Source: a virus | Taxonomy: Duplodnaviria; Heunggongvirae; Uroviricota; Caudoviricetes | Virus record (IMG/VR): IMGVR_UViG_2606217105_000017 | Strand: one strand, 5' to 3' | Length of the DNA: 47,941 bases | Program-made: the position numbers and the translations under genes | The notes under the pieces: generated by a model | Database searches by the model: none | The model's input: the letters and a program-made list of their open reading frames with translations, nothing else | Told to the model about the DNA's origin: nothing | Shown: in pieces, positions 13,455 to 47,941 of the stretch | Position numbering within the stretch: position 1 is the stretch's first letter | Layout of the letters: every line of letters begins with the position of its first letter

Positions 13455-14027
13455 ATGAGAGACATTGATGTAAGAAAGGCTGTGCATGCCAAGATTCTGA
13501 GAGATCATCATAAAGATCCTGACACCCTAATCATTGATGAGTTTACGATGAATCTAGGGGCTAGCAGAGCTGATATAGCAGTGATCAATGGGCTTATACA
13601 TGGTTATGAGTTGAAGAGCAAGAGTGATAACTTGCTCAGATTACCAGCGCAGGTGCAACATTACTCATCAGTGATGGATAAAGTAACGTTGGTTGTCTCT
13701 GATTGCCATCTTTATGATGCTTTAAGCATAGTTCCATCATGGTGGGGGATAAAGCAAGTTACGCAAGGTGCACGGCAAGGTATCCATTTAAAAACAATTC
13801 GAACTAGCAAGTTGAATCCACAAGTGGACAAACTTTCCTTAACAATGCTTCTTTGGAAAGATGAATTGCTTTCCCTATTAAGTGATGTAGGGGAGCTACA
13901 GAATTTGAAAAATAAACCTAAACGCGTCTTATGGTCAAAACTCGCCAATAGTATGGATGTTGGCGAGCTTCGTGAAGCTGTTCGAGTTAAACTTAAAGCC
14001 CGTAAAGAGTGGCGAGTTGCTCAATAA
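13455..14027 (+). CDS. PD-(D/E)xK-type putative nuclease, sce7726-family-like (190 aa)
   Basis: Motif ..DTLIIDEF..RADIAVINGLIHGYELKSKSD.. gives a D...E-x-K core; AT-rich codon usage unlike flanking phage genes. Confidence 0.55.
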   Translation: MRDIDVRKAVHAKILRDHHKDPDTLIIDEFTMNLGASRADIAVINGLIHGYELKSKSDNLLRLPAQVQHYSSVMDKVTLVVSDCHLYDALSIVPSWWGIKQVTQGARQGIHLKTIRTSKLNPQVDKLSLTMLLWKDELLSLLSDVGELQNLKNKPKRVLWSKLANSMDVGELREAVRVKLKARKEWRVAQ

Positions 14028-15090
14028 CCTTAGTTATGTGATGGTTTTGCCCAATCCTACGCCATACCTCTGGGCTACCAAATTTATAGTTACCAGAGGG
14101 ATTGGCTTTGTAGGCTTGATACTCGTTTGCATAATATTCTATGTCTCTATCTCCCGCACAGAATGTAGGCCCTGAATATTCTCGATGAGCAAGAATATCC
14201 TCACTATGTTTACCATATTGTTCATAACCAAAGCGATTAGCTACTCTTCCTCGAAATACCCAAAAGTCATTATCTCCAGAGTATCTGACGCTGGCAGATA
14301 CGCTAGGGAATCGCGTCGAAAGCCTATTAAAGTCGGGGTGCTGTACTCCATAATCACTATAAATCACATTTCTGGCAAGTTCTTTTCTATTCATTAAACT
14401 CTGCCATAAAATCCACTCGATTCGAGGTTGAGAATATAGACCAACAGAAATATCACTGAGATCTGTAGGAAATGAACCCCCAGAAATAATCACTTTCCTG
14501 TATTCATTGAGGTGCGCCAGATTGTTTATCAATCCCATTGCCAAAGTATATAGTTCGCCGGAATTAAGTTTATCCTCGGTTAACTCATCTCTTAAGTCAA
14601 TAATTATATCAATATTTGATAAAGGAATTCCCAGATGATTAATGTAATGCGTTATTAATTGTGGGTTAACCAGATCTAACGTAGTTAATCTCAAGCATAT
14701 TTCATTCTGCATTAATTCTTCAATCGCTCTTTTATAGTTAGATGGGCGAGTTGGTGAACTGACAGGAATAACTCTTATTCCCATATCTCTAACTTGATTA
14801 ACCGCATTCATTATAGGGTAATGATCTTCAGGAGAAATAAAATGCTCTTCAATTAATAATCCATCAATATAAACACCTTGCATATCTGAGCAAGATTTTG
14901 AGACTTTCTTTCCGAACTCTATAAGAGTCTCGTTATAACTCTTTAAGGCAATACCTGAATCAGGGTCAATTGGCACTGGTTCAATTTCGAGTAATGGCAA
15001 AATTTTTGATTTCTTTTCAATGGATAGCTGCGATAAAGCTGATAACTCAGAACGTTTCGCTTTCAGAATAGGAATATATGAAATTGTCAT
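13993..15090 (-). CDS. Beta-protein / sce7725-family-like protein (365 aa), convergent partner of the 13455-14027 gene
   Basis: Long AT-rich ORF; recalled resemblance to the Beta_protein family (P4 beta type); 3' end overlaps the partner by 35 nt. Confidence 0.5.
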   Translation of the reverse strand: MTISYIPILKAKRSELSALSQLSIEKKSKILPLLEIEPVPIDPDSGIALKSYNETLIEFGKKVSKSCSDMQGVYIDGLLIEEHFISPEDHYPIMNAVNQVRDMGIRVIPVSSPTRPSNYKRAIEELMQNEICLRLTTLDLVNPQLITHYINHLGIPLSNIDIIIDLRDELTEDKLNSGELYTLAMGLINNLAHLNEYRKVIISGGSFPTDLSDISVGLYSQPRIEWILWQSLMNRKELARNVIYSDYGVQHPDFNRLSTRFPSVSASVRYSGDNDFWVFRGRVANRFGYEQYGKHSEDILAHREYSGPTFCAGDRDIEYYANEYQAYKANPSGNYKFGSPEVWRRIGQNHHITKVIEQLATLYGL

Positions 15091-15590
15091 GTTAATACCT
15101 TATACAGAATCAATTAACAATTAATGGTTCTTCGGACATTGAAATTTATATCGCAAAAATTGGCAAACTCTCCTCGACTACTCACTTGTGGGTATCCTGG
15201 CGTAAAAGGAATGACTTGGCAATACCCGGTGTGATCATAAGTCATTGAAAATGATCATTTTTATCAGTCTTTCTTCCATGATGAATGCTAATGCCATTTG
15301 ATTTGTTGAGGTGAAAACTATTAAAAATCAAAACGATGTAATTGAAATGAACGTTCGGTAGCATTCACGCTTTAAATGTTTCTTTTGTGCTGATTGGATG
15401 AATTTTGGTCACTTATGATGAGAGATGTTGCAGGAAAAGAAGTTGGCATTGATCTATTGGATAGTTAGAATTGCTGCGGGTGCTTGAGGCTATCTGCCTC
15501 AGGCATGAACACCAAAAGGCAGATAGAGAAAAGCCCCAGTTAACATTACGCGTCCTGCAAGACGTTTAACATTAATCTGAGGCCATATCT

Positions 15591-17251: not shown

Positions 17252-17790
17252 TTTACCCAACGAATACAGGAAAAAGCGGAGAACACCTTCGTCTCACCAC
17301 GCTGGAAAGTGTCTGGATTCAGGGAAAACTGCGCATGTGGGGGCGCTGGTCGTATATTGGCGGCGGTAAGACGGGGAATATGTTCAACCAGTTGTTGGCC
17401 TCTAAAAAGCTGACAAAAACGGCAATTAACGAGGCGCTCCGGAGGATGAAAAAAGCAGGTCTGAACAAGTCTGAACTTGAGGCTTTTTTGCGGGATATGA
17501 TTAACGGTAAGCAAAAGAGCTGGCTGGCGCATTGTACTGATGCAGAGGCGTTATGTATTGATCGGGTGATTAGTGAAGTGCTGGCAGAACACCCAGGATT
17601 GATTTTTATCCTCCGGCAACGATATGAAGGGAGGGGGATGACTAAGCGAAAAATGGCTGAATTGCTAAATGATGCACACCCTGAGTGGTGTTTTAGCACA
17701 TGCGAAAAGCGAATTGCTAATTGGTTGGCTGTTGCTGAGTATGCGCTATACGTTCCCATGCGAGAATCATTCGCTCAAAAAATAGCTTGA
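17248..17790 (+). CDS. Late-gene antiterminator Q-like (180 aa)
   Basis: ATGA overlap with the YbcO-like gene; followed by promoter-proximal terminator and late genes; W-rich N-terminal segment reminiscent of QuuD-type Q proteins. Confidence 0.6.
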   Translation: MIYPTNTGKSGEHLRLTTLESVWIQGKLRMWGRWSYIGGGKTGNMFNQLLASKKLTKTAINEALRRMKKAGLNKSELEAFLRDMINGKQKSWLAHCTDAEALCIDRVISEVLAEHPGLIFILRQRYEGRGMTKRKMAELLNDAHPEWCFSTCEKRIANWLAVAEYALYVPMRESFAQKIA

Positions 17791-17873
17791 TTTTTTACGC
17801 ATAAACTGCTTCAATTCCGGTATGCTTCGCAAAGCTGTATCGCGAGGCGAATAGCAGTTTTGAACATCTAAAG
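17791..17873 (+). promoter_or_regulatory. Probable late promoter (pR'-like) and qut region
   Basis: Position between Q stop and tR'-like terminator; hexamers not confidently assigned. Confidence 0.3.
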
Positions 17874-17897
17874 ACCCCGCTTAATGCGGGTTTTTTT
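17874..17897 (+). terminator. tR'-like rho-independent terminator
   Basis: Hairpin CCCGC-ttaat-GCGGG followed by T7. Confidence 0.6.
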
Positions 17898-18144
17898 ATG
17901 CCCAAAAACGAAGTAGTGCGTTAAAATGTGATGGTCGGGAGTATACAGACTTTTATATAGCACTGCGTAAAAATCAATTTATCCGGGGTAAATGTCAATT
18001 TGCTTATAAAAAAACAAAAAGATAAATTTATAGCAATTGTGTTTCTTTGGGTTGAAAGTTTTAATGTCGTCAGTATTATCTGAAGCGGTTCTGAGGAGGG
18101 GGTTTCCATTGCTCGGCCACGATACTTCCGAGGAACCAATTAAC

Positions 18145-18220
<76 letters not shown>

Positions 18221-18223
18221 TAT

Positions 18224-18298
<75 letters not shown>

Positions 18299-18344
18299 GC
18301 AGAGGACGATGCTAGGCTGTTTCAGGCACTGACACATTATATGT

Positions 18345-18623
18345 GTGGGATGTTTTACCCTAACTCCTTACCACATCCTGTTCTGTAATGAATATTATTT
18401 ATTACGGTACCAGTGTTGTTTTTTTACAATAGTGGAATGGTGCATTACTGGTGGAGATTTGTATTTCCTGGCAGGGCTGGTAATGTATCATTCCGGTGTT
18501 GTAAATAACACCCCAGAGACGTTCCTCAGTGCGAGGGTGGTTGAAAGAGTCGGTTTTGCGGGAAACCACAGCATCCATGCAGGACTGGATGTTTCGGGAG
18601 GCACCCGACGTCTCTGGTCATAA
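18345..18623 (+). CDS. Hypothetical ORF (92 aa, GTG start) in the post-tRNA cargo position
   Basis: ORF followed by a good terminator; no SD or motif recognised; may be non-coding. Confidence 0.2.
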   Translation: MGCFTLTPYHILFCNEYYLLRYQCCFFTIVEWCITGGDLYFLAGLVMYHSGVVNNTPETFLSARVVERVGFAGNHSIHAGLDVSGGTRRLWS

Positions 18624-18663
18624 TAAAATCATAGTGTTCTCTTCATGCCATTTTATGCCATAG

Positions 18664-18688
18664 ACCGCCACGCCAGGCGGTTTTTTTT
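18664..18688 (+). terminator. Rho-independent terminator
   Basis: Hairpin ACCGCC-acgcca-GGCGGT followed by T8. Confidence 0.6.
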
Positions 18689-18870
18689 ATTCAGAATTCA
18701 GTATTTATGCGGCTCGCTACGGCGGGCCTTTTTCATATCCGCGCCACGCCCGGCGCATATCAAAAACCACAGAGCCTTTCAGGGGTGAGCTTACGGGATG
18801 GTCAGTGTGACTTTCTCTGTGGGCTGGTCACCCCCGGGCGCAGGCCCACCCACTAAGAGGAAACGTCACT

Positions 18871-19297
18871 ATGTTTGGTATTTTCAAAAAGAAAACCCGC
18901 AAGGCCATTACTGAAGTGAAGAAAATGGAGAACCGCGACGCGGTGGAGGCGACCGTCTGGGGTGCATATTCCATTGCATACGCTGACGGCACCTGTGACG
19001 CGAAAGAAATCGCGGTACTGGAAAAAAACCATTGCAGCACTTCCTGTCTTTGCGCCGTTCTCCGGTGAGATTGCACAAATGAGTGCAAATATCCGCGCCC
19101 GTTATGAAGCGTCGCCGCGTTCTGCCAATGCCGAAGCTCTTCGTCAGCTGGCTGATGTTGCCGGTACTGATGATGCAGTTAATGTGCTGTGCCTGTGTCT
19201 GGATATCGCTGACCAGGACGGTATCGGTCAGGAAGAAGAAGCGCAACTGAAGAAAATTGCGCAGGCGCTGCAGTTGCCGCTGGAGCAGTACCTGTGA
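18871..19297 (+). pseudogene. TerB-like protein gene interrupted by a frameshift at an A7 run (19022-19028)
   Basis: Frame 1 (18871-19068) and frame 2 (to 19297) together give a TerB-like protein (..AYSIAYADGTCDAKEIAVLEK / ..LCLCLDIADQDGIGQEEEAQLKKIAQAL..); AAGAGGA SD. Confidence 0.6.
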
Positions 19298-19446
19298 AAA
19301 GTGCGCGCCTTGTGCTGGCTGTCATCCTGTTGTTTCTGGTAGTGGTGGTTGATTTCACCGGACGACTGATGTCGGTGCTGGCAGATGGTGTGCTGGTGGC
19401 GATGGCGCTGGTCGTGCTCCGGCCTTTACTGCGTAAATCTGAATAA
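19294..19446 (+). CDS. Small hydrophobic membrane protein (50 aa, GTG start)
   Basis: Hand-translated VKSARLVLAVILLFLVVVVDFTGRLMSVLADGVLVAMALVVLRPLLRKSE; GTGA overlap with TerB-like stop. Confidence 0.4.
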   Translation: MKSARLVLAVILLFLVVVVDFTGRLMSVLADGVLVAMALVVLRPLLRKSE

Positions 19447-19532
19447 CATCACACAAAAGGCATCTGCGGATGCCTTTGACGGGGTGTTTTTTACGGGTCG
19501 CTGGTGGCCCTTTTTTATTTTCAGGAGGAAGT

Positions 19533-19925
19533 ATGTCTGAACCCTTATCCGGTTCCGGCACGGCTGCGGCGCTGGGTGGCGCGACGGTATTCGGGCTGTT
19601 TACCGGGATGGATTTCGGGATTGTGTTTGGCGCGTTCGCCGGGGCGTTATTTGTGGCAACGATGCCGCAGTCACTTTCAGTCTGGCGCGTGGTGGCACAT
19701 TTTCTGGTGTCGTTTATTGTCGGCGTGCTGGGAGCGCGTGTGCTGTCAGCCTGGATTGCATCAAAAACAGGGTATGACGGTACATCAGCAGATGCGCTTT
19801 GCGCGGTGCTGGTCTCGGTTGTGTCGGTGAAGATTCTCTCGTTCATCCACCAGCAGGATATTGCATCGCTGGTGTCCGGTGTGTTCTCCCGCCTGCGGGG
19901 TGGAGGAGGCGGCAATGTTAAGTAA
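19533..19925 (+). CDS. Putative holin (130 aa, multi-TM)
   Basis: AGGAGG SD; Gly/Ala/Phe-rich transmembrane segments; precedes endolysin. Confidence 0.5.
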   Translation: MSEPLSGSGTAAALGGATVFGLFTGMDFGIVFGAFAGALFVATMPQSLSVWRVVAHFLVSFIVGVLGARVLSAWIASKTGYDGTSADALCAVLVSVVSVKILSFIHQQDIASLVSGVFSRLRGGGGGNVK

Positions 19926-40962: not shown

Positions 40963-42123
40963 ATGGAAAATTTTGCAAATAAGTTAAAAATACACACAGA
41001 GCATGTTGCAAAAATGGGGGTGTTTTGTACAACTGAAGAAACGACAAAACAAGCACTCATTATGCCATTACTAGATATTCTTGGTTTTACTCCGTATGAT
41101 CCAAGAAAAGTCAAAGCTGAGTATAGTGCTGACTTCCCCGGGGTTAAGGCTAATGAACGGGTTGATTACGCTTTATTTTGTCATGATGTTCCTGTGATGT
41201 TCATTGAGGCGAAATCGTTTTCAGAACAAATTGATAATCACTGCCCACAGCTATCAAGATATTTTAATTCAACACCGGAAGTTACTATATCAGCCATTAC
41301 AAATGGTGTTGAATGGCGTTTTTTTACGGATTTGAAACAAAAAAACATAATGGATTCAACGCCGTTTTTAAAATTAAGAATGGATTCTCTAACTCACTCC
41401 GATATTACACAATTATTTCGTTTTCGTTATGATAAATTCAAACCAGAGGCTTTACGGACACTGGCTGAAGAAAGTGTTTATTTGAATTCATTTACTAAAA
41501 CAATCAGTTCTAGTCTTCGTGAAGTTGATCTGGAGTTTGTTCGATATGTTGCTAGTCGTTCAAATATTGAGAGGCAACTTAATCAGAGATTTCTTGAGTT
41601 CGTGACTCCATTAGTTAAACAGGCCGTTGAGCGCGCTGTTAGCGCAATGGTGGTTTCCGGGCTATCTACACAACCGGTAGAGCAAACTAAAGAAAATGAT
41701 GCAACGGATACACAAGTTAATAACGCCATTGTTGATGAAGAAAACCCCAACATAATAACCACAGCCAAAGAATTGGAGCTATTTGAAAGGGTAAAACAAA
41801 TCATACAAACAGAAGATAATATAGAATATAAAGATACTGAGTCATATTTCGGTGTACTATTGAATGGTAAAACTAATAGATGGCTGTTAAGATTTTATGA
41901 TAAAAAATCTTCATTTATAACTTTACCTATTTCGCTTAGTGAAGTTCAGTTGAATGAAATAAGACGAGCTCGACTTGATACGGATGGTAAAAGGATACAT
42001 ATAACTAATCCGGAAGATATACTTCGCATATCTGGTTTGATTCTGGATTCATACGAGTATGTTAAAAATGATGATAATTTCCGCCGAGGGTCCAGAGTGA
42101 GCAGTTTAGAAGAGGTTGAATAA
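40963..42123 (+). CDS. Moron: PD-(D/E)xK nuclease-domain protein (HsdR-N-like N-terminus), 386 aa from SD-supported ATG
   Basis: AT-rich gene with GGAGGAG SD; motif ..ERVDYALFCHDVPVMFIEAKS..QLSRYF..ITNGVEWRFF..; followed by a bidirectional terminator; interrupts baseplate gene order. Confidence 0.6.
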   Translation: MENFANKLKIHTEHVAKMGVFCTTEETTKQALIMPLLDILGFTPYDPRKVKAEYSADFPGVKANERVDYALFCHDVPVMFIEAKSFSEQIDNHCPQLSRYFNSTPEVTISAITNGVEWRFFTDLKQKNIMDSTPFLKLRMDSLTHSDITQLFRFRYDKFKPEALRTLAEESVYLNSFTKTISSSLREVDLEFVRYVASRSNIERQLNQRFLEFVTPLVKQAVERAVSAMVVSGLSTQPVEQTKENDATDTQVNNAIVDEENPNIITTAKELELFERVKQIIQTEDNIEYKDTESYFGVLLNGKTNRWLLRFYDKKSSFITLPISLSEVQLNEIRRARLDTDGKRIHITNPEDILRISGLILDSYEYVKNDDNFRRGSRVSSLEEVE

Positions 42124-42127
42124 GTAA

Positions 42128-42151
42128 AAAACCCGCGAAAGCGGGTTTTTT
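42128..42151. terminator. Bidirectional rho-independent terminator
   Basis: A6-ACCCGC-gaaa-GCGGGT-T6. Confidence 0.65.
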
Positions 42152-42163
42152 AATGGAGTAAAT

Positions 42164-43390
42164 ATGTCAGAAATACCAATTACTATGACCAGTGCGGGTG
42201 CGCAGCCTACGCCACCCAATGATTTGCTCGCGAATCTTATCACTAGAGTTGCTGAAAAAGTACCTGGATATACAGCCAACCTTCCGGCGGGGCTTATTAC
42301 AGACCTTGCCAGCACGGCTGTCGGGGCGCTGGCATTAATAGACCAGGCGCGGGTGGACCTTATTAACTCCGTAAGCCCATACGGCGCGAATATTCCGTTA
42401 CTGATGCAACTCGGAAACATATATGGAGCACAGAAGGGATTAAGTACAAATACGGCGGTATACGTGGTGTTTGAGGCGTTGCCGGGGTTTGGTATCCCTA
42501 AAGGATTTGTTGTCGGTGACGGCAACTACCAGTATGCGGTTTCCCGCGATACCGTGGTACCGGAAAACGGGCAGACTGAGCCAGTCTACTGTGTGGCCAC
42601 AACGTCAGGCTCATGGGCTGTACCGGAAGGGACCGTGACGCAGGTCATTACCTCAGTACCCAAAGACCAGCCTGTAAAATGCACCAACTTTACCGCAGGA
42701 ATGCCCGGTCAGGAGGCGCAAACGTGGGCATCTTACCGCGCCGAAGTCATGGAGTCCGGCATGTTTGGTGTGCAGGGAACACCGGATTGCTTTAAAGCTA
42801 TGCTCAAATCAGTAAGCGGTGTGCGAGAAAACCTGATTTCTTTCCGGCAGTCGTCGCTGGGGAAATGGGTTGCGGTTGTTGGTGGCGGTGATCCGTATGA
42901 TGTGGCTTATGCGATTTACAAATCTGTACCGGATATTTCGAAACTGACCAACGATGTAAGCAATCCATCCGGTGCGGCAGTGGAAAAACGCACGGTTTCA
43001 ATAACCGTTTCGCCGGACGTTTATCAGGTGCCTTTCGTTATCCCGTCATCACAAAACGTCATGGTGCTAATCACCTGGAACACGGTGTCTGATGATTATG
43101 TTGATCCGGCGGGTATTGCTATGGCTGTGCAGCAAAACGTTGCTGATTACATCAATTCAATTGAAGTCGGACACCCGATAAATCTTCTGCGTATCCAGGA
43201 TATTTTTACCAGTTCTGTCAGGTTGCTGGTTGATGCGACGTTGATCTCAACAATCAGTGTGAGCATTGGTATTAACGGTCATATTGTTCTTCCGGCGAAA
43301 GACACAAGCCTGGTTTATGGCGATACCTATTCCTATTTTTCAACGGTGGCATCACAGGTTCAGGTCAACAAGTATGCAATATCTGACTGA
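42164..43390 (+). CDS. Baseplate J-like protein (408 aa)
   Basis: Size and order J, I, fibre, Tfa; GGAG SD. Confidence 0.55.
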   Translation: MSEIPITMTSAGAQPTPPNDLLANLITRVAEKVPGYTANLPAGLITDLASTAVGALALIDQARVDLINSVSPYGANIPLLMQLGNIYGAQKGLSTNTAVYVVFEALPGFGIPKGFVVGDGNYQYAVSRDTVVPENGQTEPVYCVATTSGSWAVPEGTVTQVITSVPKDQPVKCTNFTAGMPGQEAQTWASYRAEVMESGMFGVQGTPDCFKAMLKSVSGVRENLISFRQSSLGKWVAVVGGGDPYDVAYAIYKSVPDISKLTNDVSNPSGAAVEKRTVSITVSPDVYQVPFVIPSSQNVMVLITWNTVSDDYVDPAGIAMAVQQNVADYINSIEVGHPINLLRIQDIFTSSVRLLVDATLISTISVSIGINGHIVLPAKDTSLVYGDTYSYFSTVASQVQVNKYAISD

Positions 43391-44000
43391 GAAAATTCTC
43401 CCTGCTTATCCATTTGCGCAGTACAGAGATGATCCGAATGTTGTTGCGTTCTTTGATGCATACAATGAAATTGCTCAGGAATACCTCGATTCACTCAACA
43501 ATCTGGCATTGCCATGCTGGACATCGGAATCAATAACCGGGCAATTACTGGACTGGATTGCACTCGGGATTTATGGCGTTGAAAGGCCTTTACTACAGGT
43601 TTCCGAGGAGGCTATTGCACGCGGCGCATACGATACCATTGAATACAATACGATCCCGTATGCAGCAATGCGGAATTATGTTCCGGGGCAGGCATCGTAT
43701 GTACCTGATGATTATTTCAAACGAATATTAACGTGGAATTTTTATAAGGCTGACGGTTCGCATTTCTGCATTGACTGGTTAAAGCGCCGTGTGGCGCGGT
43801 TCATTCATGGGAAAAACGGAATAGACCCGCCGTTGCAGCACACTTTTGATGTGAGCGTGACTGTATCGGACAGTGTTTTTTCTATTCAGATACCAGAATA
43901 TGGTGATGGTATAGGCTATTTTCTGAAAGATGCCATTGACCAGAAATATGTAAAACTCCCTTTTATTTATTCCTATGCAACAACGGTGATTCAAAAATGA
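43374..44000 (+). CDS. Tail protein I-like (208 aa)
   Basis: Overlaps J-like stop; position before the fibre gene. Confidence 0.5.
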   Translation: MQYLTEKILPAYPFAQYRDDPNVVAFFDAYNEIAQEYLDSLNNLALPCWTSESITGQLLDWIALGIYGVERPLLQVSEEAIARGAYDTIEYNTIPYAAMRNYVPGQASYVPDDYFKRILTWNFYKADGSHFCIDWLKRRVARFIHGKNGIDPPLQHTFDVSVTVSDSVFSIQIPEYGDGIGYFLKDAIDQKYVKLPFIYSYATTVIQK

Positions 44001-46114: not shown

Positions 46115-47941
46115 ATGTCTGTAGTGATATCAGGTGCGCTGATAGATGGCGCAGGCATCCCCATGTCCGGATGCCACATAATTCTGAAATCCCGGGTAAA
46201 CACCTCAGAGGTGGTGATGCGCACAGTTGCCGACGTGGTGACAGGAAACTGTGGCGAGTACTGTTTTAAGGCGCAGACCGGAAAATATTGCGTATATCTG
46301 AAACAGGACTGGCGCGACGAGTACTATGTTGGCGACATTGCTGTATACGACGACTCAAAGCCCGGCACGCTGAACGACTTTCTGACTGCCCTTGATGAAG
46401 GCGATTTAAAGCCGGATGTAGTGAAACGATTTGAGGAAATGGTGGTGCAGGCACAGCAGAGTGCTGAAATCGCAGCATCATGTGCAGAACAGGCAGGGCA
46501 AATATTAAATAACATCCAGGAGGTTGCAGGGCAGCTTTCCACAGTACGCTTCGAAAATTTTAACGATATTAGCAGGCGGTGTACGACAGCCATGCTGAAG
46601 CTGGAACAACCCGAGGTTGTTAATACATCAATATCTTTAAAAATAAAAGAAAATATCGATTTTAATTATGTCGGTGCAGTTAACGGATATTGCGATATTC
46701 CTGAACCTGAAAAGTATAAAGTCGAAATGTATGCTTATACAACTGGAGAGTATTTTAACGGCGACGCTAATTTGAATAGTGACGGAACTTTCTATTTCAG
46801 ACGTTGCTGGACGGGAGCAAAACAGTTTCGTCTTATTCGGATTGAGGATAATGCGTGGATCACAACGCTGGAATTTCCGCTGCTCATTCGTAGTTACTGG
46901 ATGCCAGAGGACGCAGATCCTGACGTGATCAGGGTGATGAAAGACCGATGTTACACGTATGACCAGGCGCTGGCAGCACTGGCGTTGATGGTTCAGCGAC
47001 ATGAAGCTGTGGAAAGATACGTTTCAGGTTTGTGTGCACTTGTTGATGAAAACGGCGGGGTGAAATTTTTTGTTAACAGGCTGTCGGCCATGTCTTCGCG
47101 CGCCTATTATCGACTGGGCAATGCGGCATGGGTTTACTATGCCCTTGCGTTCTATCTGGAGAAATACCCGGACGGAGCACAGGTAAATATTGTTCGGGCA
47201 AAGTTGTTATCTGGCATCAGCTGGCTGGATTCTTTCCTGGTAACCGCCCCTGGTGATTTACGTGAAGGCCTGTATAAAGGCGGCCTTGGTCGTTATGTAA
47301 ATGGCGAATTTGACGCCAGTTTCGTTGCCGAATGGTGCGCACTGGAGCATAACGTTGATATCTGGTTTTTGTTTGAACTGATGGGGAGACTGGAATTTAA
47401 CGGCTTCATTCAACGCGCCGATGCGCTGGCAAAAAGTATCATCAGGGGGTTCTGGATGGAAGAGGAAGGCCGGTTCCGGCAGGGAGTACACCCAACCAGT
47501 TATGATAACGCGGCGGCTCTCGATCAATCGTCATGGGGCGGGCTGTTTGTAGCGAATATAGACATGGCTAAAGCTGTACGTTGTCGTAAGTATATGGGGC
47601 GTTTCTTTTTTGGCACCCGCGAAGCCACGGGTTACACACCTTACCACCCCGATTATGGATACAGTGGTCACAGTCGAGGTGTATGGGTGGAAGGGACCGC
47701 AGGAGTGGCACTTTTTGAGAGAAAGCTTGGAAACGAGGTTACAGCAGTGAATCTCATTGCAGCAATGGCACCGCTTCGTGATGAATACGGCTATCGTGAT
47801 TCATGCGATGACCCGGCATATGATGTGCTCCCACCCTGGCCATCAACAACAAACACGGCGTGGGTAATCCTGACAGTAAAACCTGATAATTTTTGGCTGG
47901 TAGATTCACCGATCATGGACGTTGGCATGATTCGATACTGA
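46115..47941 (+). CDS. Second tail fibre / tailspike: side-tail-fibre N-terminal anchor plus putative enzymatic C-terminal domain (608 aa)
   Basis: N-terminus MSVVISGALIDGAGIP..DSKPGTLNDFLTALDEGDLKPDVVKRFEEMV.. resembles lambdoid Stf N-termini; C-terminal 450 aa non-fibrous, Trp/Tyr-rich; stop is the last triplet of the window. Confidence 0.55.
   Translation: MSVVISGALIDGAGIPMSGCHIILKSRVNTSEVVMRTVADVVTGNCGEYCFKAQTGKYCVYLKQDWRDEYYVGDIAVYDDSKPGTLNDFLTALDEGDLKPDVVKRFEEMVVQAQQSAEIAASCAEQAGQILNNIQEVAGQLSTVRFENFNDISRRCTTAMLKLEQPEVVNTSISLKIKENIDFNYVGAVNGYCDIPEPEKYKVEMYAYTTGEYFNGDANLNSDGTFYFRRCWTGAKQFRLIRIEDNAWITTLEFPLLIRSYWMPEDADPDVIRVMKDRCYTYDQALAALALMVQRHEAVERYVSGLCALVDENGGVKFFVNRLSAMSSRAYYRLGNAAWVYYALAFYLEKYPDGAQVNIVRAKLLSGISWLDSFLVTAPGDLREGLYKGGLGRYVNGEFDASFVAEWCALEHNVDIWFLFELMGRLEFNGFIQRADALAKSIIRGFWMEEEGRFRQGVHPTSYDNAAALDQSSWGGLFVANIDMAKAVRCRKYMGRFFFGTREATGYTPYHPDYGYSGHSRGVWVEGTAGVALFERKLGNEVTAVNLIAAMAPLRDEYGYRDSCDDPAYDVLPPWPSTTNTAWVILTVKPDNFWLVDSPIMDVGMIRY

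Follow-up and report, generated by a model that had tools for sequence, protein, structure and literature searches.

Phage P1 carries a small group of genes in which tciA is followed by tciB and then by tciC, the last of which is 108 nt long, with tRNA genes flanking the group. All three genes were scored as non-essential in a CRISPRi screen (PMC10695390). The TerB family, to which TciA belongs, is also represented by TerB of the terZABCDE tellurite-resistance operon and by the solved TerB-like proteins 2ou3 and 2h5n. A different kind of precedent is given by homopolymer 'pseudogenes' that are rescued by transcriptional slippage, as described by Baranov et al. 2005 (PMC1088944) and for Citrobacter rodentium tssM (PMC4256274). 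In these cases an ORF that is otherwise intact is interrupted by the gain or loss of one A in a poly(A) run, and its wild-type protein would be recovered by slippage.

The locus described here combines a gene of the first kind with a lesion that resembles the second. It lies in a window of 47,941 nucleotides, the whole stretch of DNA that was analysed, and by sequence comparison the broken gene is a close homologue of P1 tciA and a member of the TerB family. Once repaired, it encodes a protein of the same length as P1 TciA (141 residues), and P1 tciA has a run of six A (A6) at the codons where the window has seven (A7), as a DNA alignment showed. In both elements a small hydrophobic ORF (tciB or DUF3927) begins next to the stop codon or overlaps it, and there are tRNA genes in the vicinity. 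Unlike P1 tciA, the prophage gene is placed in the late region of a lambdoid, Rac-like prophage upstream of the holin genes, is inactivated by the extra A and is not accompanied by tciC, since the 87 nt between the DUF3927 ORF and the holin gene (19447-19533) hold no ORF. It also differs from TerB of the terZABCDE operon in that no other ter genes are found near it. Like the rescued 'pseudogenes', it is a poly(A) run with a single-A indel that splits an intact ORF, and slippage would restore its wild-type protein just as it does theirs; however, the runs in the cases of Baranov et al. are ~9 or more A/T (PMC1088944) while this one has 7 A, and the split arrangement has not been seen conserved outside one prophage lineage. 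A literature search for TciA, TciB and DUF3927 found no experimental paper on the prophage gene, the P1-related papers alone being relevant, and the 'tellurite resistance' name of the gene is one given by homology only.

With a 721-nt query, the window was found to be 100% identical to the chromosome of E. coli strain E275 a (NZ_CP035865.1, assembly GCF_018884485.1). The frameshifted TerB locus is already known, being flagged as a pseudogene in the RefSeq annotation: the RefSeq/PGAP entry for 'tellurite resistance TerB family protein' covers exactly 18871-19297 and is labelled pseudo and frameshifted, and this is the sole 'frameshifted' feature among the 67 annotated features of the 48-kb window. 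The features that the following argument needs, all on the + strand, are these.

18145..18298, + strand: prophage tRNA-Thr(UGU) and tRNA-Gly(UCC), the upstream marker of the A7 prophage lineage (ARAGORN, Rfam, PGAP)
18662-18690 and 18711-18735, + strand: two tandem intrinsic-terminator-like hairpins upstream of the tciA-like gene (consensus matches only)
18871..19068, + strand: 5' part of the broken gene (tciA, TerB family), with 52 native codons ending in ...VLEK and then 13 out-of-frame codons before a premature TGA at 19066-19068
19022..19028, + strand: A7 homopolymer, the site of the one-base insertion; ancestral A6, codons GAA AAA ACC (Glu-Lys-Thr)
19029..19297, + strand: 3' piece, shifted to +1 with respect to the start; it encodes native residues 53-141 and has no stop before the native one at 19295-19297
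19079..19297, + strand: 72-aa ORF (MSANIR...), reported by gene callers in frameshifted alleles
19187..19201, + strand: CTGTGC-CTGTGT-CTG hexanucleotide tract encoding LCLC, with in-frame expansion to 3-5 units in some other A7 alleles
19294..19446, + strand: intact 50-aa hydrophobic ORF, DUF3927 / TciB-like (PF13064, PHROG 1470, PGAP protein WP_000833653.1)
19495..19516, + strand: terminator-like hairpin and T-run between the DUF3927 ORF and the holin gene (consensus match only)

The window is a Rac-like (lambdoid) prophage at ttcA. Upstream of the locus are the DUF1367, DUF1364 and DUF1133 (Q-like) genes followed by tRNA-Thr and tRNA-Gly, and downstream are two holin genes, an M15 endolysin gene and the terminase genes; this place, between the late antiterminator/tRNA region and the lysis cassette, is a typical lambdoid 'moron' position. 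The interval from the Q-like DUF1133 gene to tciA holds tRNA-Thr(UGU) and tRNA-Gly(UCC) in the window, and in sister prophages a DNA methyltransferase gene with tRNA-Ile, tRNA-Arg and tRNA-Arg. The tciAB module was seen repeatedly beside phage tRNA clusters, and tciABC of P1 is tRNA-flanked as well. On both sides of the tciA-tciB pair there are terminator-like hairpins, a tandem pair upstream and a single one downstream, which gives the layout of an insulated, moron-like cassette, and 11 terminator-like sites were counted in the region where 2.5 were expected. The 570-nt gap between the tRNA genes and tciA also contains a long hairpin-like stretch (18418-18510) with Rfam matches to miRNA precursors that are below threshold (32.7 bits against a gathering score of 100) and probably reflect just a stable hairpin.

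Some further features of the prophage were recorded. Its head genes are lambda-like while its contractile-tail genes are P2-like, and the tail region carries an IS66-family (ISCro1) insertion at ~41234-43849. Identical xisR genes are present near both ends (~646-2098 and ~46328-47780), each beside an integrase gene; the two integrases differ and one of the pairs adjoins ttcA, an arrangement suggestive of a Rac-like element that is tandem or composite. Near hokD, in the early region (~13549-15184), a 'beta family protein' gene and a 'sce7726 family protein' gene form a convergent, slightly overlapping pair, an uncharacterised cassette of two genes like those that occur in defence islands.

The broken gene itself consists of two overlapping ORFs in the ORF listing of the window. 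The first (18871..19068, +) is in frame 1, starts with ATG and encodes 65 aa; the second (18962..19297, +) is in frame 2, starts with GTG and encodes 111 aa. Inspection of the sequence placed the homopolymer at 19022-19028 in the context GG-AAAAAAA-CC, and reading across it from the start gives ...GTA CTG GAA AAA AAC CAT.... When one A was deleted from the run in silico, a continuous 141-aa ORF was obtained, with the junction peptide ...AVLEKTIAALPVFAPFSGEIAQMSANIR in the full-length product across the run. The exact 141-aa sequence is a natural intact protein present on 258 contigs, and therefore the join of the two frames is not a matter of chance. The sequence-only reading of this DNA had proposed that the two ORFs meet at the A7 run and represent one split gene, and both points are borne out by the ORF listing, the sequence and the natural protein. 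It had also described each ORF as half of a TerB-like fold, of which the single fold stands but the halves do not: there are 52 native codons 5' of the run and 89 codons 3' of it, and the break, after 52 of 141 residues, interrupts the second of the six helices in the predicted structure.

The assignment to the TerB family, which that reading had also made, holds for the repaired protein, with a score of 32.4 bits against Pfam TerB (PF05099; cut-off 24.4), while the separate fragments stay below the same cut-off (20.2 bits for the 5' piece and 13.8 bits for the other fragment). PF05099 is present in 106 of the 120 listed homologues in a precomputed table, and PHROG 632 ('tellurite resistance', moron category) matches residues 1-141 with an E value of 2.8e-64. 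A tblastn search aligned residues 1-141 of the repaired protein with P1 TciA at 85.8% identity (E 2e-75) and gave homologues in 94 phage records. Sequence searches against PDB chains with the repaired protein and with a 30-sequence profile gave chance-level matches only (E >= 0.04) and no TerB entry, so a comparison of folds was needed. The structure predicted for the repaired protein has a TerB-like, all-helical fold and its best structural matches are 2h5n and 2ou3, proteins whose similarity to it is too low for phmmer or hmmsearch. Among the NCBIfam models only a chance-level DjlA match was found, and the PADLOC defence-system models matched neither the TerB-like nor the DUF3927 protein.

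The downstream ORF is assigned as well, with 54.2 bits against PF13064 (cut-off 25) and a match to PHROG 1470 ('TciB-like') at E 3.3e-23. Its GTG start overlaps the upstream TGA stop in the sequence GTGA (19294-19297), in agreement with the overlap between a 50-aa hydrophobic ORF (19294-19446) and the 3' end of the split gene that had been noted before, and a GGAG motif lies 8 nt upstream of the GTG. In one 196-aa homologue from a Logan contig (P0119), PF05099 and PF13064 are both present in a TciA-TciB fusion, which presumably arose by loss of the overlapping stop codon.

Comparison with homologues defines the intact state of the run. Intact E. coli alleles are 426 nt long and have A6 at the site (GAA AAA ACC, Glu-Lys-Thr), so that the window has one A more. 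All 30 homologues compared, the most distant at 74% identity, have L-E-K-T at the site, indicating that the A6 run exists because the E-K-T codons are conserved and is not maintained as a tract. It had been suggested that intact homologues would have A8; this was not the case, since those compared, including P1, carry A6, and A8 would enter frame 3 and stop at the TGA at 19080-19082. Only A6 or A9 restores the gene.

The A7 allele is widespread. Of 79 complete E. coli genomes, 9 matched an 81-nt probe across the run with the identical A7 sequence, and PGAP calls the gene 'frameshifted' in all 9. Exact-pattern scans that admitted A5 to A9 gave 28 A6 and 6 A7 contigs in IMG/VR (n = 34), four matches in metagenome contigs, all of them A6, and none in genome contigs with one genome per species. 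Across at least 55 loci the run length was only 6 or 7, and neither A5 nor A8 nor A9 was found in the pattern scans of IMG/VR and metagenomes or in the complete genomes; the lack of A5 is mild evidence that slippage is not frequent. The 65-aa frameshift product, with its aberrant tail, occurs in identical form on 452 contigs (NCBI, MGnify, Logan, ENA) and is indexed in 803 blocks of an assembly collection, one of which is a metagenome assembly.

The state of the run follows the prophage lineage. All 13 loci with tRNA-Thr/Gly and DUF1133 upstream have A7, while 36 of the 37 loci with a DNA methyltransferase and tRNA-Ile/Arg upstream have A6 and the remaining one has A7. Every one of the six records at least 99% identical to the window over 721 nt has A7, and no A6 revertant of the A7 lineage was seen among them. 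The carriers include several O169:H41 strains from different years and places, and all have A7.

The association has exceptions that bear on the origin of the allele. A7 is found with a different synonymous haplotype in codons 14-33 at three loci (L004, L031 and L059), on the full marker background of the A6 lineage in locus L064 (GCA_900448925.1), and on A6-lineage markers that are further recombined downstream in locus L048 (IMG/VR 2531839436_000010). One genome carries both states, with one A6 copy and one A7 copy (L036 and L037). The occurrence of A7 on the A6-lineage background possibly results from gene conversion between co-resident prophages, with a tract of at most 950 nt, or from a second, independent insertion. 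Because positions 1-950 around the run hold no fixed lineage marker besides the run itself, conversion and recurrent insertion are both possible, and A7 may have had one origin or more. The upstream gene set of L064 is itself different and comprises RusA, a PF03589 antiterminator and TfpB.

From these results, we consider it highly probable that the A7 locus is a heritable pseudogene of a non-essential moron gene, produced by a one-base insertion that turned A6 into A7. Among the three options that the sequence-only reading had named, which were a pseudogene, a sequencing error, and a slippage or phase-variable switch, the first fits the evidence and is also how RefSeq/PGAP annotates the locus. 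For ribosomes that start at 18871, the frame is native for 52 codons and wrong from the A-run onwards, with termination at 19066-19068, which leaves 1.7 of the six predicted helices of the TerB-like fold. The mutation is inherited with a particular prophage lineage and is present on a second marker background as well. The insertion itself may have been a replication slip in a homopolymer whose presence is dictated by the conserved Glu-Lys-Thr codons, and its spread to the second background would be due to recombination between prophages or to a second insertion. The allele may persist because the gene is dispensable, P1 tciABC being non-essential. Any full-length protein would arise only from background errors, either a +1 slip of tRNA-Lys on AAA-AAA or the loss of one A by RNA polymerase. 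Since each of these events recreates the exact wild-type protein, a low level of rescue is conceivable.

The 3' part of the gene bears on the age of the pseudogene. It is completely open in every A7 allele examined, which implies that the pseudogene is young or that it is not entirely free of constraint. The changes observed there are Y78H in one sub-lineage and in-frame expansions of an LC repeat in another, and as point substitutions number only two, a test for selection on the 3' part would have no power to separate a young from a constrained sequence. The CTGTGY tract has two units in the window (LCLC) and three, four or five in other A7 alleles (L008, L010, L034, L060-L063 and L065), while expansion was found in none of the ~36 A6 alleles. 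Such expansion, seen in A7 alleles only, may be due to the instability of a microsatellite or to constraint having been relaxed once the frameshift was in place.

The first alternative is that A7 still yields full-length TciA by recoding, either because tRNA-Lys slips by +1 on AAA-AAA-C or because one A is lost by slippage during transcription. Either slip would restore the exact wild-type protein, and the 3' frame is intact in all A7 alleles. Non-programmed frameshift suppression of ~1% has been described in E. coli, with one frameshift mutant that needed a -1 slip (PMC10861913), and RNA polymerase slippage can rescue disrupted ORFs at slippery runs (PMC1088944). However, detectable slippage of E. 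coli RNA polymerase, or bypass of indels by it, has been reported to require a run of 7 T or longer and a still longer run of A, so that 7 A is too short for appreciable slippage (PMC6260861). Of 108 bacterial genomes in one analysis, a large proportion show selection against slippery runs once these reach ~9 nt (PMC1088944). Nor is the split arrangement conserved, as P1 tciA and the 140-142-aa homologues examined are single in-frame ORFs with A6. No downstream structure was found when 19000-19110 was folded (z = -0.05 against shuffled sequence), there is no Shine-Dalgarno-like stimulator, and the codon next to the run, AAC, is not a slow one. An Rfam search of 17700-19700 at a permissive threshold passed the two tRNAs alone, with all other matches far below their gathering scores. 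The heptamer A-AAA-AAC favours a -1 shift, which leads into a dead end. This -1 frameshift was considered as a candidate in its own right and rejected, because it enters frame 3 and meets the stop at 19080-19082. A slippage site is thus not supported by the in-frame A6 homologues or by any stimulatory structure, and recoding is very unlikely in our view; trace amounts of full-length TciA are conceivable but would be noise and not a programmed product.

Still less likely, and strongly disfavoured, is a contingency switch in which the A-tract gains or loses a base at high frequency and turns tciA on and off within a population. Its appeal is that the lesion lies in a homopolymer, that two tract lengths occur in nature, and that A7 is found on more than one marker background (L064 and L048 against L001), which could mean recurrent slippage. 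Several observations speak against it: the tract is A6 or A7 only, without A5, A8 or A9; A7 is lineage-bound, in 13 of 13 loci against 1 of 37; the six close records are all A7 with no A6 revertant; and O169:H41 and other carriers from various years and places are A7 throughout. Moreover, the A6 run is accounted for by the invariant E-K-T codons. Known contingency loci have tracts that are far longer than an A-tract of 6-7 nt in mismatch-repair-proficient E. coli. A state that follows lineage, shows no revertant and sits in a codon-derived run has the pattern of an inherited mutation and not of a contingency locus.

It is extremely improbable that the locus works as a split gene, in which a 65-aa N-terminal peptide and a 72-aa C-terminal peptide re-initiated at the ATG at 19079 keep or alter the function and feed translation into the tciB-like ORF. 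Re-initiation as such is possible from the sequence, as this ATG lies in the native frame 11 nt past the premature stop, with GGTGAG (19064-19069) 9 nt upstream. The 72-aa ORF is called in every frameshifted locus checked (10 of 10), its exact sequence occurs on 248 contigs, and PHROG 9865 (74 aa) is a family of such C-terminal fragments; the DUF3927 ORF is also intact in all A7 carriers. On the other hand, the break lies inside predicted helix 2 of a six-helix bundle and the 72-aa ORF lacks native residues 53-69, so that neither piece is a folding unit. Because the fragment would be without helices 1-2 and part of helix 3 in the structural model, independent function is unlikely. The GGAG of the DUF3927 ORF, 8 nt upstream of its start, means that coupling is not needed, and the LC-repeat expansions, confined to A7 alleles, suggest relaxed constraint on the 3' piece.

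A sequencing or assembly error, by which a homopolymer miscall would have added an A to a true A6, has a negligible probability in spite of the homopolymer indels that are the typical error of long reads and of several carriers that we take to be long-read assemblies (CP024xxx and CP035xxx records), and is effectively refuted by the same A7 in 9 complete genomes of different projects, 6 IMG/VR draft-genome contigs and a metagenome assembly, by the exact 65-aa product on 452 contigs (NCBI, MGnify, Logan, ENA), by the tight linkage of A7 to one prophage lineage, unlike that of random errors, and by the lack of any other 'frameshifted' gene among the 67 features of the 48-kb window.

The inherited pseudogene carries little weight beyond annotation hygiene. 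We see only a slight chance, though a better one than for any of the alternatives above, that A7 is not dead and has spread in many prophages of enterotoxigenic-type E. coli since a down-tuned or split TciA is advantageous while the TciB-like peptide stays intact. If this were true, TciA would be made at ~1% or less by error-level +1 or transcriptional slippage, or would be replaced by the re-initiated 72-aa fragment, and the homopolymer would tune a prophage membrane-stress or exclusion module slowly and in a way that evolution can reverse.

As an inherited pseudogene, the locus is an example of how a frameshift at a homopolymer, in an accessory gene of a prophage, can persist as a stable and widely inherited allele that is neither an assembly error nor a switch. 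The tciA/tciB (TerB and DUF3927) module is common in P1-like and lambdoid phages and is functionally uncharacterised, and the natural A6/A7 pairs in near-identical prophages could serve as ready isogenic material for the function of this module.
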